Assembly (NCBI RefSeq): GCF_058153355.1
Contig: NZ_CM177019.1
DNA length: 64,000 bases
Reading direction: 5' to 3' (one strand)
Part shown: one piece after another, positions 38,760 through 43,181 of the stretch
Position numbering within the stretch: the first letter of the stretch is position 1
Layout of the letters: each line of letters opens with the position of its first letter
Made by a program: the position numbers and the translations under genes
The notes under the pieces: model-generated
The model's database searches: none
What the model saw: only the letters and a program-made list of their open reading frames with translations
Told to the model about the DNA's origin: nothing

Positions 38760-39581
38760 TTATCGCATTATGCCCATAAAGCCATGTACGCCCATATACA
38801 CACCAACTAAGCCAATCAACAGACTGGAAAAATAGGGGGCGCGTTTAGCGAGAGTGTTAAATCCGCTCCAGCGTTTTGCGACCTGCTGAACGCTGATTGC
38901 TGCGCCAATGCCTACGGTGACCAGCGTTAACGCAAGGCCAATGCTGAAACTGACGACCAGTGTTGCGCCCAGTGTCAGGGCTTTCAACTGAATGCAAATC
39001 AACAGCACGGTAATTGCTGCCGGGCAGGGGATAAGGCCACCGGTTAAGCCAAATAACAAAATTTGCCAGTTGGTGACCTCTCTACCATCGAAGCGTCGTT
39101 TAATGTCATTGGCATGGGCTCGTGCATGAGCATCCTGATACTCCCCATGTTCGTGATGGTGATGATGTCCATGGTCGTGGTGATCTTCGTGATCGTGATG
39201 ATACTCATGATCATGCCCGTGCATATTCTCCAGCCAGTTGCGTTCGCCGCGCCAGGTACGCCAGAACATCCAGAACGCGGTGCCAATAATGATCACCGCG
39301 GAAATCAACTGGAGCCACGGTTCTGCAGATTGAGCAGTAAAACGTTTGCTGATCACCATCCCGCCAAAGGCAATCAACCAGACCACCGCGGTATGCGAAA
39401 TGGTTGCTGCCAGTCCGAGCATCACCGCCTGTTTAATGGTGCCTTTGATGGCGATGATAAACGCCGCCATCATCGTTTTTGAGTGCCCTGGTTCCAGGCC
39501 ATGAAGCGCACCAAGTAAGATGGCGCTGGGGATGAAGAACCAGGCATTTCCTTGCTGAAGAAGAGTGGTAAATTCGGTCAT
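38760..39581 (-). CDS. rcnA: Ni/Co efflux protein RcnA
   Basis: 273-aa membrane protein with a central His-rich loop (HGHDHEYHHDHEDHHDHGHHHHHEHGE). Confidence 0.92.
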   Translation of the reverse strand: MTEFTTLLQQGNAWFFIPSAILLGALHGLEPGHSKTMMAAFIIAIKGTIKQAVMLGLAATISHTAVVWLIAFGGMVISKRFTAQSAEPWLQLISAVIIIGTAFWMFWRTWRGERNWLENMHGHDHEYHHDHEDHHDHGHHHHHEHGEYQDAHARAHANDIKRRFDGREVTNWQILLFGLTGGLIPCPAAITVLLICIQLKALTLGATLVVSFSIGLALTLVTVGIGAAISVQQVAKRWSGFNTLAKRAPYFSSLLIGLVGVYMGVHGFMGIMR

Positions 39582-39618
39582 GATAATAATTCTTAGTATT
39601 AATTCGGCAATCCGATTC

Positions 39619-39652
39619 TACTCCCCCCCAGTACCTGATACTACCCCCAGTA
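39619..39652. promoter_or_regulatory. two RcnR operator sites (TACT-C/G tract-AGTA) in the rcnA-rcnR divergent promoter
   Basis: tactcccccccagta (39619-39633) and tactacccccagta (39639-39652) match the published TACT-G6-N-AGTA type operator as I recall it. Confidence 0.75.
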
Positions 39653-39700
39653 GAATAATAGTGCTATGATTTTTCATGTTCTTGTTAACCAGGTGTTGCC

Positions 39701-39973
39701 ATGTCTCATACAATCCGTGATAAACAGAAACTGAAAGCGCGTGCCAGTAAGATTCAGGGCCAGGTCGTGGCGCTCAAGAAAATGCTCGACGAGCCGCACG
39801 AATGCGCAGCTGTTCTACAACAGATTGCTGCTATCCGTGGCGCGGTAAACGGCCTGATGCGCGAAGTGATTAAGGGGCATCTGACGGAACACATCGTTCA
39901 CCAGGGGGATGAGCTAAAACGTGAAGAAGATCTGGATGTCGTTCTGAAGGTGCTGGATTCTTATATCAAATGA
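39701..39973 (+). CDS. rcnR: Ni/Co-responsive repressor RcnR (CsoR/RcnR family)
   Basis: 90 aa beginning [21 protein letters not shown]…, with a conserved Cys35 context (HECAAVLQQ). Confidence 0.92.
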
Positions 39974-40042
39974 AAGTGCCTAATATGGCCGTAGTTGAGG
40001 CAATAAATAGAGGGACAAGTGACGTTAAGCTGAATTAGAGTA

Positions 40043-40066
40043 AATGGCGTGAGGACACACGCCATT
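40043..40066. terminator. hairpin between convergent rcnR and the 104-aa gene
   Basis: aatggcgtg-aggaca-cacgccatt forms a 9-bp stem. The T-tracts are weak. Confidence 0.4.
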
Positions 40067-40082
40067 CGAGGATATAGTTTGA

Positions 40083-40397
40083 TTAATTTTCGAAAAATTG
40101 CTTCACAGCCCAGCCACCATGACCACCTGGAGTTATGAATGAAACAAAACCTTTGTCATCGACGCTCTGGATTTCTACTGTCATTGATTCATCTAACACG
40201 CGACATTTATTGGATGTAATGAGACTCAGCATAGCCTGTTGGTCATTGTCCTGGATGTAACTGATCATCTCGTAAAAGTCAGTTAACTTTTTACAGTTAA
40301 ATGTACCTTCTTTAAGTGTTGCGCTGTCTCCGTGACTTAGTGCGAATGCATTTGGCATCATTGCCACAAAGATGACGGTAACGAGTAGTTTTTTCAT
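40083..40397 (-). CDS. hypothetical secreted protein, 104 aa
   Basis: The ORF has a signal peptide (MKKLLVTVIFVAMMPNAFALS) and two Cys residues in the mature part. It lies in AT-rich DNA. I recognise no family. Confidence 0.6.
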   Translation of the reverse strand: MKKLLVTVIFVAMMPNAFALSHGDSATLKEGTFNCKKLTDFYEMISYIQDNDQQAMLSLITSNKCRVLDESMTVEIQSVDDKGFVSFITPGGHGGWAVKQFFEN

Positions 40398-40406
40398 TGT
40401 AGCCTC

Positions 40407-40754
40407 TTATAATTCAGAACATTCACTGATGTTGTAAGTGCCTTTTCTACCATCATCGTTTACGAGATGTAGCACGAAGATGATGGGATTGGCATCAATG
40501 AAAGATACAGAGACGTTCCCGCTTTCGGTGCTATACATCTTTGCAATCTGTTTTTCACCAATATATGAAAGATCCCAACTCACTCCGTTCAAGCTAAAAT
40601 GCATCTGTTTGCCGTCAATATCGATGGAGGATTGTGCCGTAACGGTTTTCCCATTGCTGCCAATTTGACCCTGCTGAAGAGCATCACATTTATAGGAGCT
40701 TGCATAAGTAAATAGAGGTAGTAGCAGAAGTGCAGCAAAAATTTTACTCTTCAT
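40407..40754 (-). CDS. hypothetical secreted protein, 115 aa
   Basis: The ORF has a signal peptide (MKSKIFAALLLLPLFTYASS) and two Cys residues in the mature part. It lies 9 nt upstream of the 104-aa gene, so the two likely form a bicistron. Confidence 0.6.
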   Translation of the reverse strand: MKSKIFAALLLLPLFTYASSYKCDALQQGQIGSNGKTVTAQSSIDIDGKQMHFSLNGVSWDLSYIGEKQIAKMYSTESGNVSVSFIDANPIIFVLHLVNDDGRKGTYNISECSEL

Positions 40755-41431
40755 ATTTTCCCTTTGCTTGGATTTGAGTTACCTATTTTGGGGTAGTCAT
40801 TATAAAACTATTAATTAGTAAAATGAACAAGTTTTCATTTGTTTAGTAATGGTATTGTTTAGGTTTGAAATTATTACGTACTTTCATAGCAATAGGTTGG
40901 ATAAACAGCAGTTCAGAGAACAAGTTGCACTATCTACATACTTTCCCGCTTTCCATTGTATGTTAGGTAATAGATAGCCTTTGCCCGTAAGACTAAAAAT
41001 ATTAGAAATGACTCATTCGAATACCTTCTATTCACCTTAATATAGGTTTGATTATTGTAATCGTTTAATGTGTCTTATGGATTTTTTCCTACTTTTCATT
41101 TGCATAATATAGGGGGCACAGCATGCTCTTGAAATTAATTATTAAGATATTTAAATTTTACAGCACACAACTACTTTTCGTTGTCTTATGTGTTGAACGT
41201 ACTTCGAGTATAGGTAGGGTTGTATATATATTGCGTGGGTAGAGTTAGAATAGAGGAGGCATCATTTATAGAATATTCAAGAACGTTAACCTGTGATCAA
41301 TAAATAAAAATATCAAATGGTGTTCAAACATATTTTTCTATGAAAAATCCAGCCATCTATGATGAATTTTTAGATCCATTTTAATTAAAGTATGATTATG
41401 AACCAATATTTAGCCAAGAATGGTGGTATAG

Positions 41432-41671
41432 CGCGTATCCAATGACACCGGAAAACGCATCTATGAAGTCCTTGTTTATCTCTATAAGAGGAAATCAACA
41501 CTAATAAAATATAGTGATGTAACACATCGAGCAGGTTGCTCTGATGCTGGTCTTCAACTGTGGCTTAAACAGCTATCAAACTTCGGTGTTATTGAGATGA
41601 AAGAATTATCTTTCTCAACTTTCAATCTCAAAAAGCTAGAGGAAATAGACCTTAATTATTCCACTCTCTAA
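41432..41671 (+). pseudogene. start-less open frame resembling a winged-helix DNA-binding domain (decayed gene fragment)
   Basis: Manual translation gives …IYEVLVYLYKRKSTLIKYSDVTHRAGCSDAGLQLWLKQLSNFGVIEMKE…STL*. The frame has no upstream ATG. Adjacent frames hold short fragments (MKNPAIYDEFLDPF*, KYDYEPIFSQEWWYSAYPMTPENA…), which suggests stop and frameshift decay. Confidence 0.3.
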
Positions 41672-41807
41672 ACTTATCTCTTTATTTAAAGTAAAAATGA
41701 AAATATTATGGTATCAGCTACGTGGTGGTAACTGGTGTTTATGATCATAGGTACACATATACAGGGAACCCTGGAAAACAAAAGTAATATATTGATGATT
41801 TCGTTTG

Positions 41808-42047
41808 TTATAACTTCGTGGTATCAAGTCCGGCGGCTTTGAGTCGCTCGGTAAGATTTCTCATTTTGCTGAACTCTGTACCAAAGCTGGCTTTAAGTCC
41901 TACACCTTCGCAAAACTCTTTTGCCGTGACGTTTTTAAGATGGTCAGCGTATTTGATCATCTGGAGGTGCATTTCCATCGTTTGGCTATTTCGTGGTGCG
42001 CTGCTAATGGCTTGCTTAATGTTCTCGTAGATCTGGGTTTCTGTCAT
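41808..42047 (-). CDS. hypothetical 79-aa helical protein
   Basis: The ORF is MTETQIYENIKQAISS…AGLDTTKL. A direct-repeat motif lies just upstream. I recognise no family with confidence. Confidence 0.5.
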   Translation of the reverse strand: MTETQIYENIKQAISSAPRNSQTMEMHLQMIKYADHLKNVTAKEFCEGVGLKASFGTEFSKMRNLTERLKAAGLDTTKL

Positions 42048-42068
42048 TTTTTATCTCACCTATCAAAT

Positions 42069-42098
42069 TTAGATAAATAATATAAATTAGATAAATAA
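42069..42098. repeat. two 12-bp direct repeats (ttagataaataa) 18 bp apart, upstream of the 79-aa gene
   Basis: Exact copies lie at 42069-42080 and 42087-42098, 22-51 nt upstream of the start codon at 42047. Confidence 0.6.
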
Positions 42099-42261
42099 GA
42101 TAATCAATAGTTTTTACCATATGAATAATGGATGTGGATTGTTTCTTTTTCATTTCTGATATGGAGTACAAAATGGGGTCACAATGAAGAAGCGATGAAT
42201 GGAGGCGAGCTTGCATCTGCAAGCCTCTTCCCCTAATCTGGCACAAAATATAGAGATTCAA

Positions 42262-42392
42262 CCAAACGACTCGGGGTGCCCTTCTGCGTGAAGGCTGAGA
42301 AATACCCGTATCACCTGATCTGGATAATGCCAGCGTAGGGAAGTCACGGACCACCAGGTCATTGCTTCTTCACGTTATGGCAGGAGCAAACT
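42262..42392 (+). promoter_or_regulatory. TPP (THI-box) riboswitch controlling thiM translation
   Basis: ccaaacgactcggggtgcccttctgcgtgaaggctgagaaatacccgtatcacctgatctggataatgccagcgtagggaagtc… contains the conserved CUGAGA and ACCUGAUCUGGAUAAUGCCAGCG elements. The SD (ggcaggag) is adjacent to the anti-SD segment. Confidence 0.95.
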
Positions 42393-43181
42393 ATGCAAGT
42401 CGACCTGCTGAGTTCCGCGCAATCTGCGCACGCGTTACACCTTTTTCACCAACATTCCCCTCTTGTGCATTGCATGACCAATGATGTGGTGCAAACCTTT
42501 ACTGCCAATACCTTGCTGGCGCTCGGTGCATCGCCAGCGATGGTTATCGAAACCGAAGAAGCCAGTCAGTTTGCGGCTATCGCCAGTGCCTTGCTAATTA
42601 ACGTCGGCACGCAGACGCAGCCACGCGCACAGGCGATGCGTGCTGCCGTTGAACAGGCAACACACTCTCAAACCCCCTGGACGCTTGATCCGGTCGCGGT
42701 TGGCGCACTCGATTATCGTCGCCGTTTTTGTCATGAACTTTTATCTTTTAAACCGGCAGCGATACGTGGTAATGCTTCGGAAATCATGGCATTAGCTGGC
42801 GTTGCTAATGGTGGACGGGGAGTGGACACCACTGACGCCGCAGCTAATGCGATACCCGCTGCACAAACACTGGCACGGGAAACTGGCGCAATCGTCGTGG
42901 TCACAGGCGAGGTGGATTATGTTACCGATGGTCGTCGCACCGTTGGCATTCACGGCGGCAATCCGTTAATGACCAAAGTGGTAGGAACTGGCTGTGCATT
43001 ATCGGCAGTTGTCACTGCCTGTTGCGCATTACCAGGCGATATGCTGGAAAATATCGCATCTGCCTGTCACTGGATGAAACAAGCCGGAGAACGCGCCGTC
43101 GCCAGAAGTGAAGGGCCTGGCAGTTTTGTTCCCCATTTTCTTGATGCGCTCTGGCAATTGACGAAGGAGGTGCAGGCATGA
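42393..43181 (+). CDS. thiM: hydroxyethylthiazole kinase
   Basis: 262 aa, recognised as ThiM and preceded by the TPP riboswitch. Confidence 0.93.

Follow-up and report, generated by a model that had tools for sequence, protein, structure and literature searches.

What is the AT-rich DNA that lies between rcnR and thiM on contig NZ_CM177019.1 of the NCBI RefSeq assembly GCF_058153355.1, and how did it come to be there? The stretch analyzed, referred to below as the window, is 64,000 nucleotides long, and the segment in question, referred to as the islet, takes up its positions 39974-42260. It had been described in an original prediction, drawn from the sequence alone, as strain-variable accessory DNA with only three small genes, all on the minus strand, two of them encoding a possible pair of orphan immunity or inhibitor proteins. 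The comparisons presented here indicate that the islet is very probably a leftover, immobilized and partly decayed, from a family of small defense islands that target the thiamine pyrophosphate (TPP) aptamer of the thiM riboswitch. Three genes that would otherwise pass as 'hypothetical' would thereby become parts of an interpretable dead mobile element, in which one of the surviving genes corresponds to a recognized defense-island repressor.

Composition, limits and distribution of the islet

The islet is indeed more AT-rich than its flanks. Its guanine plus cytosine (GC) content is 36.2%, compared with 49.2% over the whole 64 kb, 50% in rcnA-rcnR and 55% in thiMD. This is the minimum among all 2,287-bp stretches of the window, and the 0.16% of sliding windows with an equally low value all overlap the islet. 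The close neighborhood of the two flanking genes in Escherichia coli K-12, which the prediction had assumed, is real: in MG1655 there are 222 bp from the rcnR stop codon to the thiM ATG. Homology to K-12 (39601-39971) breaks off at 39971, inside the rcnR stop codon, and restarts at 42259, leaving about 2.28 kb where K-12 has a spacer of about 95 bp. The left flank of the intact island of E. coli EC17CM13, described below, matches the window over 39001-39971. The junction thus lies at or inside the rcnR stop codon, yet the rcnR frame ends at the same place.

The accessory nature of this DNA is borne out by its distribution among 5,426 complete E. coli genomes. An empty, K-12-type junction is found in 4,727 of them (87%); at least 80% of the islet is present in 339, chiefly O157:H7 and O55:H7 at 97.3% identity, and only part of it in about 240 more. 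The closest match, at 99.9%, comes from a canine isolate. O157:H7 and O55:H7, among others, share identical junctions. With an islet that is no part of the core genome and open reading frames (ORFs) that have conserved homologues under purifying selection, the prediction stands with regard to both content and homologues. In total, some 580-700 of the 5,426 genomes have an occupied thiM site, and a related integrase is encoded in just 68. This means that thiM is occupied by an island or a relic in about 11-13% of sequenced E. coli and that about 1% still have the integrase; given the scarcity of the latter, relics outnumber intact islands by about 10:1.

Intact islands are inserted in the thiM riboswitch

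The origin of the islet becomes apparent from its intact relatives, elements of about 8-11 kb with a tyrosine integrase of 434-435 aa, which were found in E. coli EC17CM13, SCU-102 and YSP8-1 and in Klebsiella. In EC17CM13, the order from rcnR to thiM is native spacer, TPP aptamer, integrase, a 191-aa gene, a TIR-STAND gene, a serine recombinase, the 104-aa and 115-aa genes, small ORFs, a 257-aa gene, DUF6998, an HTH_73 gene, a second TPP aptamer and thiM. SCU-102, YSP8-1 and Klebsiella display the same layout with other cargo. Klebsiella homologues of the 104-aa gene also adjoin thiM/thiD, within a larger element that has a serine recombinase, a TIR-STAND gene and a tyrosine integrase. Among the cargo, PADLOC recognizes a PDC-S60/ThsB-like TIR-STAND system, mREase_II (DUF6998), AbiU and mREase_IV; the DUF6998 restriction gene is present in EC17CM13, YSP8-1 and BL21. 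An intact island protein of 220-229 aa matches HTH_36 of Pfam.

A full-length TPP aptamer, above the Rfam gathering threshold, is located at both ends of all four intact islands, with scores of 60-63 bits at the integrase end (attL) and 71-74 bits at the thiM end (attR). The attL aptamer, which scores about 10 bits below its attR counterpart, is without the native P1 3' strand. Alignment of attL, attR and the empty site (attB) places the exchanges precisely. At attL, where the native K-12-type spacer is kept, the DNA upstream is native and turns into island DNA past GCGTAGGG; at attR, island DNA upstream enters the shared block near GACTCGGGG and is followed by the native expression platform and thiM. 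Since both copies switch between host and island at the edges of the shared aptamer block, the thiM TPP-riboswitch aptamer itself is the predicted chromosomal attachment site of the island integrase. The Klebsiella island is flanked on its far side by a usp gene instead of rcnR; therefore, it is the riboswitch that is targeted, rather than the stretch between rcnR and thiM.

A repeated 9-bp motif, TGrGGTACA, points in the same direction. All islands and relics scanned have two or three copies in the arm at attR, and three of the four intact islands have two at attL as well, beside or overlapping the start of the integrase gene; in SCU-102 (30-kb locus) the attL copies have diverged. In four of the six scanned loci (EC17CM13, YSP8-1, Klebsiella and ETEC4069; BL21 is without attL) the motif occurs nowhere else within 10-29 kb, and it was not found in the K-12 locus. 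Judged from the sequences, this distribution is as expected of arm-type integrase sites.

The island-borne 5' halves of the aptamer vary in the P3 stem-loop (attR aptamers at locus L018, 25381-25477, and locus L014, 12701-12798). The changes in YSP8-1 are paired, with CCCCATC...GATGGG compared with CCCTTC...GAAGG in the host, and their compensatory character suggests that the element has been selected to rebuild a working thiM riboswitch. At the opposite end, the host thiM promoter and an almost complete TPP aptamer precede the integrase gene by 68 nt (attL at L014 1713-1885, L017 7900-8071, L018 13837-14009 and L024 16435-16608). According to RNAalifold, a CU-rich stretch, CTCTTTTTGT, pairs with the integrase Shine-Dalgarno sequence, ACAAAAAGGG, in all four islands, without covariation. 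Control of the integrase by thiamine or by transcriptional read-through is possible, with a low probability.

Two further features of the intact islands deserve mention. Every one of them has a stretch of 1.3-1.9 kb without annotated genes between the module formed by the secreted-protein and recombinase genes and the small ORFs with HTH_36 (L014 9496-10777; L017 2178-4030; L018 21924-23268). An origin or iterons, a non-coding RNA or unannotated genes may be hidden in it, and positions 40985-41240 of the window may be its leftover. Just upstream of the serine recombinase gene there is a conserved inverted repeat with the core GTCTCAAAAG / CTTTTGAGAC and arms 41 nt apart (L018 20946-21022; also in EC17CM13, Klebsiella and Citrobacter), a candidate res or operator site that has been deleted in the window. 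The idea that the serine recombinase flips the secreted-protein module was dropped, because a search of the window and of three intact islands did not reveal consistent inverted repeats.

A probable relic in the window

The right end of the islet, whose nature as an integrase attachment arm had escaped the original prediction, leads up to the only TPP aptamer that Rfam detects in the window. AttL is gone, the islet has no flanking direct repeat in the window, and neither a recombinase nor defense cargo is left; all that remains of an integrase is a fragment of about 31 codons. Matches to the island backbone cover 40037-40840 (the 115/104-aa pair module and its terminator hairpin) and 41305-43000 (the right end). 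The pair module, a fragment of the HTH_36 gene, a fragment of an 81-aa gene, rptR, the att arm and the aptamer are co-linear with their counterparts in EC17CM13 and SCU-102, which identifies the islet as a relic of this family (Table 1).

The prediction of only three small genes has to be amended accordingly. The three intact ORFs are there, all on the minus strand, but the 1-kb middle that had looked empty holds fragments of three broken genes. The first corresponds to the integrase, with tblastn matches to residues 415-432 of the SCU-102 protein (83% identity, E 3e-6) and residues 402-432 of that of YSP8-1 (E 2e-5), and a blastn match of 53 bp (E 4e-6). The second belongs to the HTH_36 gene. 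The third derives from the 81-aa gene, which has lost its N-terminus and start codon, and no plus-strand ORF of at least 40 aa is found there. Because an integrase 3' end to the right of the pair cannot fit a single island of canonical order, pieces of at least two islands appear to have been joined: the relic probably combines parts of two islands, for instance of a tandem array, after several deletions.

Both arm repeats of the window are mutated, one reading TGGAGTACA and the other, TGGGGT-CACA, lacking 1 bp, and in O157 Sakai 11 bp covering most of the second repeat have been lost. Given these mutations, the relic should be immobile for site-specific recombination. Relics of integrative islands are ordinary in themselves. 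The history of this one probably includes exchange between lineages: between the window and O157 Sakai, rcnR is 96.3% and the 5' part of thiM 94.3% identical (39701-39973 and 42393-42760), whereas the relic genes are 99.2-99.4% identical. The larger divergence of the flanking core genes points to an exchange, by homologous recombination, of the relic or of its flanks.

These results fit with the following course of events. The tyrosine integrase would insert the island at the thiM aptamer, duplicating about 75-80 bp. AttL would keep the host thiM promoter, with the integrase gene 68 nt further on, and attR would join island DNA to the native expression platform and thiMD, so that a working riboswitch is rebuilt. 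The interior would carry variable anti-phage cargo, the small serine recombinase, the 115-aa and/or the 104-aa gene, the HTH_36 protein and small ORFs; rptR would mark the thiM end, and a methyl-directed restriction gene would often come next. In the window, a deletion that begins at the rcnR stop codon and ends shortly beyond the 104-aa gene terminator would have taken the native spacer, attL, integrase, cargo and recombinase, whose place is now occupied by the 63 bp of junction DNA (39974-40036). Later deletions would have reduced the integrase, HTH_36 and 81-aa genes to fragments.

Table 1. Features of the islet and its borders in the window
Feature	Position	Strand	Basis or remark
Left junction	39971..39973	+	rcnR stop TGA here, TAA in K-12; K-12 and the attL flank of intact islands match up to here
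Junction DNA, 63 bp	39974..40036		Without counterpart in K-12 or any related island examined
Terminator-like hairpin AATGGCGTG-AGGACA-CACGCCATT	40043..40066	-	Directly 3' of the 104-aa gene; terminator-like call
104-aa protein gene	40083..40397	-	ORF; signal-peptide-like N-terminus, C35/C65
115-aa protein gene, first of the bicistron	40407..40754	-	ORF; signal-peptide-like N-terminus, C23/C112
Tyrosine integrase pseudogene fragment, last ~31 codons	40892..40984	+	In-frame stop (YLHTFPLSIVC*VIDSLC)
HTH_36 pseudogene fragment, C-terminal 47 codons	41241..41381	+	In-frame stop; tblastn E 3e-9 and 5e-11
81-aa island protein fragment, residues 16-81	41441..41671 (residues 16-81: 41441-41638)	+	85% identical to the SCU-102 copy; tblastn E 8e-37
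rptR homologue, 79 aa	41808..42047	-	Pfam HTH_73 (PF24718), E 6.5e-31, 106.5 bits vs cut-off 27
Candidate rptR promoter/operator	42070..42107	-	TAGATA 42070-42075 and 42088-42093 flanking -10-like TATATT 42084-42079; -35-like TTGATT 42107-42102
Island-derived att arm	42150..42261	+	Directly upstream of the aptamer; replaces the native K-12 thiM upstream region
Degenerate arm-type repeats	42162-42170 (TGGAGTACA); 42174-42183 (TGGGGT-CACA)	+	Motif scan
Palindrome GCTTGCATCTGCAAGC	42209-42224	+	In the att arm
Candidate thiMD promoter	TTGCAT 42211-42216, 17 nt, TAATCT 42234-42239	+	Putative position
thiM TPP riboswitch, attR of the former island	42262..42358	+	Rfam, 71.2 bits
Shared att identity block	GACTCGGGG at 42268 to GCGTAGGG at 42340	+	att alignments

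The island arm as a probable promoter of thiMD

From 42259 to 42340, the window and the attL copy of EC17CM13 are 100% identical. Upstream of the shared block, the att arm matches that of the Klebsiella island, in an arm alignment that spans seven strains, and the last 140-200 bp of the arm are kept in all relics examined, including the IS1-truncated one of STEC388, in which the IS1 element lies 55 bp away. As the native thiM promoter region either stays at attL or is deleted, the arm would have to supply the promoter of thiMD, and in the window it would drive these genes through the intact riboswitch. In this strain as in O157:H7, transcription of thiMD thus most likely starts in foreign DNA, a circumstance relevant to work on thiamine regulation and to the users of these strains. 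In the study of the corresponding island of E. coli B it was suggested that earlier spontaneous mutants, all of which required vitamin B1, were probably IS1-mediated deletions reaching thiM (PMC5487053).

A surviving gene of the RptR repressor family

The best understood of the three intact genes is the one nearest to thiM. It had been noticed as the gene of a 79-aa helical protein; the ORF is there, and its product is not anonymous, as it belongs by sequence to the RptR family, with 70% identity (E 2e-32) over residues 1-77 to PDB 9R2Z. This entry is RptR (RMS-proximal transcriptional regulator) of enteropathogenic E. coli (EPEC), a 79-aa dimeric repressor described in 2025 that shuts off a defense-island promoter by means of TAGCTA-type hexamers overlapping the -10 box (Zhang et al., NAR 2025, PMC12255303). 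The residues involved in DNA binding by helix alpha4 (E58, K61 and S60) and in dimerization (E25, L69, A72 and L74) of RptR (PMC12255303) are all found, seven of seven, at the same positions of the window protein. The dN/dS ratio (non-synonymous to synonymous substitution rates) of its gene is 0.03-0.04.

The putative binding sites are conserved as well. RptR operators have been defined as at least two TAGCTA, TAGATA, TATCTA or TATATA hexamers that overlap the -10 and lie no more than 100 bp upstream of rptR (PMC12255303). In the window, where just 29 hexamers of these types occur in 64 kb, two TAGATA copies lie 23-46 bp upstream of the rptR ATG in such an arrangement; in O157 Sakai the second hexamer is the canonical TAGCTA. 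The resemblance to the EPEC system therefore extends from the protein (79 aa, 70% identity, conserved residues) to its position as the first gene at the edge of a defense island and to two TAGATA-type hexamers around the -10, within 50 bp of the start codon. The two systems differ in what is controlled: EPEC RptR acts on a Type I restriction-modification (R-M) system with an embedded DarTG2, whereas in the thiM islands the downstream gene, when present, encodes a methyl-directed restriction enzyme (DUF6998/McrX). The window gene is the orthologue of ECD_02033 of E. coli B (MQMTETQI...), which sits upstream of ecoBLmcrX and in which transposon insertions lower restriction (PMC5487053). Taken together, the sequence comparisons identify the 79-aa protein as a putative RptR-family autorepressor of defense-island promoters. 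Since the DUF6998 restriction gene is absent and nothing is left downstream, RptR of the window would be an orphan autoregulator, repressing its own promoter through the two TAGATA operators.

A constrained pair of predicted secreted proteins

The other two genes encode, as had been predicted, a bicistron of 115-aa and 104-aa proteins with signal-peptide-like N-termini and Cys pairs, 9 nt apart. The 9-nt spacer holds a GAGG Shine-Dalgarno sequence, the signal-like segments end in AFA|L and TYA|S without a lipobox, and the Cys pair of either protein is invariant throughout the respective family. The spacing is kept even at 48% identity, and the hairpin behind the 104-aa gene is kept in all island versions (E. 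coli, Klebsiella, Citrobacter and L008). Compared with orthologues from Klebsiella, Citrobacter, EC17CM13 and metagenomes, dN/dS is 0.06-0.16 for the 104-aa and 0.04-0.09 for the 115-aa gene, and between the window and O157 the pair is 99.4% identical and the non-coding middle of the islet 97.9%. These values characterize both ORFs as real genes under apparent purifying selection.

Both families are small. An exhaustive HMMER search with the 104-aa profile retrieved 18 proteins at E <= 1e-3 among 1.84 billion representatives; two giant matches, to cadherin-repeat and ankyrin-repeat proteins, were discarded as repeat artifacts. The 115-aa profile retrieved 48 clusters in two subfamilies, all from Enterobacteriaceae where the source organism is named, and paralogues 41-43% identical are encoded in the SCU-102 and YSP8-1 islands. 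Neither protein belongs to a Pfam, NCBIfam or PADLOC family, with nothing above sub-threshold noise (DUF4369, E 0.034; FimI, E 0.11); PADLOC yields a partial match to the 104-aa protein (HEC-01B, 13 bits, E 0.019) and none to the 115-aa protein. The AlphaFold2 model of the 104-aa protein (predicted local distance difference test, pLDDT, 89.4) shows a small beta-barrel of SH3/Tudor-like type, into which two helices are inserted between C35 and C65, and its nearest BFVD models are small uncharacterized phage proteins (template modeling score up to 0.76), one of them annotated 'lipoprotein'. The 115-aa protein is modeled with low confidence (pLDDT 62) as an 8-stranded beta-barrel. A relationship to the lysozyme inhibitors PliC/MliC/PhiA was considered and rejected, as there is no sequence similarity to them and many unrelated barrels score higher than they do against the low-confidence model; the genomic context of the pair, a mobile defense island, differs as well.

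The genomic neighborhoods of the homologues were compared in about ten distinct settings in E. coli, Klebsiella, Citrobacter, Cronobacter and metagenomic contigs (the contig of one distant 104-aa homologue, P0040, is of about 1 kb and too short for context). Their neighbors are the serine recombinase, integrases, XRE regulators and anti-phage genes. A different integrative element, characterized by an integrase and DUF5906, is present in the Enterobacteriaceae contigs L008-L011. The 104-aa gene stands by itself there; an XRE regulator is oriented divergently from it, and a serine recombinase and an Eco29kI R-M system lie downstream. Because the gene is also found there, the secreted-protein/recombinase module seems to move between island backbones. 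The 115-104 operon, which consists of island accessory genes, would export two disulfide-bonded beta-proteins to the periplasm. That the pair provides protection at the envelope, by blocking the entry of phages or other invaders or by neutralizing a periplasm-acting enzyme, is a tentative proposal. In any case, two tiny, unannotated and strongly constrained families travel with these islands and are reasonable candidates for a new envelope-level function.

Alternative explanations of the islet and its genes

The original prediction had assigned the pair, speculatively, to orphan periplasmic immunity or inhibitor proteins, which would have been kept after the loss of a cognate toxin. The signal peptides and invariant Cys pairs of both proteins, purifying selection and the retention of the genes in a relic stripped of almost everything else would suit this role. 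However, a cognate toxin was looked for beside the homologues in the ten or so settings, from five genera, and no toxin, colicin, type VI secretion system (T6SS) effector, lysozyme or bacteriocin gene was found; the consistent partner is the serine recombinase on a defense island. No immunity or inhibitor family was recognized by Pfam, NCBIfam or PADLOC, the 104-aa profile has no sequence match in the PDB, and the modeled SH3-like barrel of the 104-aa protein is not a known immunity fold. As the neighbors are always mobile-element or defense genes and never a toxin, orphan immunity was rejected as the leading reading and is considered unlikely.

The islet could also be what is left of a prophage or of a P4-like or phage-inducible chromosomal island (PICI)-like satellite, its small secreted proteins acting as superinfection-exclusion morons. 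All three proteins match tiny PHROG families over their full length, relatives of the 104-aa protein occur in the satellite-like element with integrase and DUF5906 and on a Cronobacter plasmid with phage-like genes, and the small phage proteins of BFVD, including the annotated lipoprotein, share the 104-aa fold. Nevertheless, tblastn of the 104-aa and 115-aa proteins against 50,697 phage genomes retrieved none, for which reason the PHROG matches were not taken as a sign of phage origin; the families concerned are high-numbered and very small, which would be consistent with spill-over from prophage prediction. Neither Pfam nor annotation reveals capsid, packaging, lysis or primase genes in the intact 8-11-kb islands, and a phage origin is thus quite improbable.

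That the small ORFs are non-functional, and the islet decaying junk silenced by H-NS, would agree with its high AT content and with the several broken genes next to them. It is very improbable in view of the dN/dS of 0.03-0.16 for all three ORFs across island lineages, the maintenance of frames, Cys pairs and 9-nt spacing at 48-85% identity, the stronger conservation of the ORFs than of their non-coding surroundings between the window and O157, and the intact RptR residues and operators. Finally, an ancestral E. coli segment deleted from K-12 and most strains is scarcely credible: it would account for a relic without an intact mobility gene or flanking direct repeat in the window and for the identical junctions in O157:H7, O55:H7 and other strains, but not for intact relatives with an integrase, duplicated att sites and the native spacer at attL, for the same island at thiM with another far flank in Klebsiella, or for a GC content 13 points under that of the flanks and an empty site in 87% of genomes.

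The interpretation of the islet as the remnant of a thiM-targeting defense island has, for its part, several points against it. The att site was assigned by the comparison of sequences. Nothing retrieved corresponds to two parts of the islet, the 63 bp of 39974-40036 and some 460 bp at 40841-41304. The order of the deletions and the two-island history are reconstructions, in which the integrase fragment has only about 31 codons, and homologous recombination at the locus blurs its history. Both folds modeled for the pair are generic, that of the 115-aa protein with low confidence. Lastly, a consensus promoter scan called no thiMD promoter in the arm, whose -10 candidates are weak.

Relation to known systems and significance

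The closest described relative is the island next to thiM in E. coli B, which carries ecoBLmcrX (Fomenkov et al., PLoS One 2017, PMC5487053). It shares with the islet the site, the rptR orthologue, the att arm and the riboswitch junction, and it is likewise a relic without an integrase, truncated by IS1. The E. coli B relic keeps the DUF6998 and HTH_36 genes and is without the 115/104 pair, whereas the window keeps the pair and is without the restriction gene. Integrase, att sites and riboswitch are never mentioned (zero occurrences) in the main text of that study (PMC5487053).

In a broader sense, the thiM islands resemble the tyrosine-integrase islands that target structured RNAs, such as tRNA and tmRNA genes or, in the case of phage phiEf11, ffs (PMC12540744). 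Insertion into the conserved sequence of a structured RNA, a target duplication that rebuilds a functional copy, an integrase beside one att site and arm-type repeats on both arms are common to all of them. The thiM islands differ in that their target is a cis-regulatory aptamer in an mRNA leader instead of a stable RNA gene, and in that the promoter and the 5' aptamer half give way to island sequence, while with tRNA-targeting islands it is typically the RNA 3' end that is exchanged. Integration into ffs was still called novel in a 2025 paper (PMC12540744), and no report of a riboswitch aptamer as the target of an integrase was found in the searchable literature, which is no proof of absence.

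The novel aspects, namely riboswitch targeting, promoter replacement, a possible link between thiamine and the integrase and the secreted pair, lie more in the intact relatives than in the window. It is conceivable, though doubtful in its entirety, that they define a previously undescribed class of riboswitch-attaching defense islands, in which the element brings half an aptamer and a promoter, the integrase may be coupled to thiamine and the pair forms a new envelope-acting protective module. If so, the regulation of thiMD would survive integration, and the secreted pair would be beneficial enough to outlast a dead island. The related loci indicate that a riboswitch aptamer can be an integrase target and that thiM is a defined hotspot of defense-gene turnover. 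The integrase and attP, assayed against the thiM aptamer, would offer a simple experimental system and possibly a new orthogonal integrase/att pair.

Neighboring genes

Next to the left junction, rcnA (38760-39581) varies in the length of the His-rich loop of its product: RcnA has 273 aa in the window, 274 in K-12, 277 in SCU-102 and 279 in O157 Sakai.

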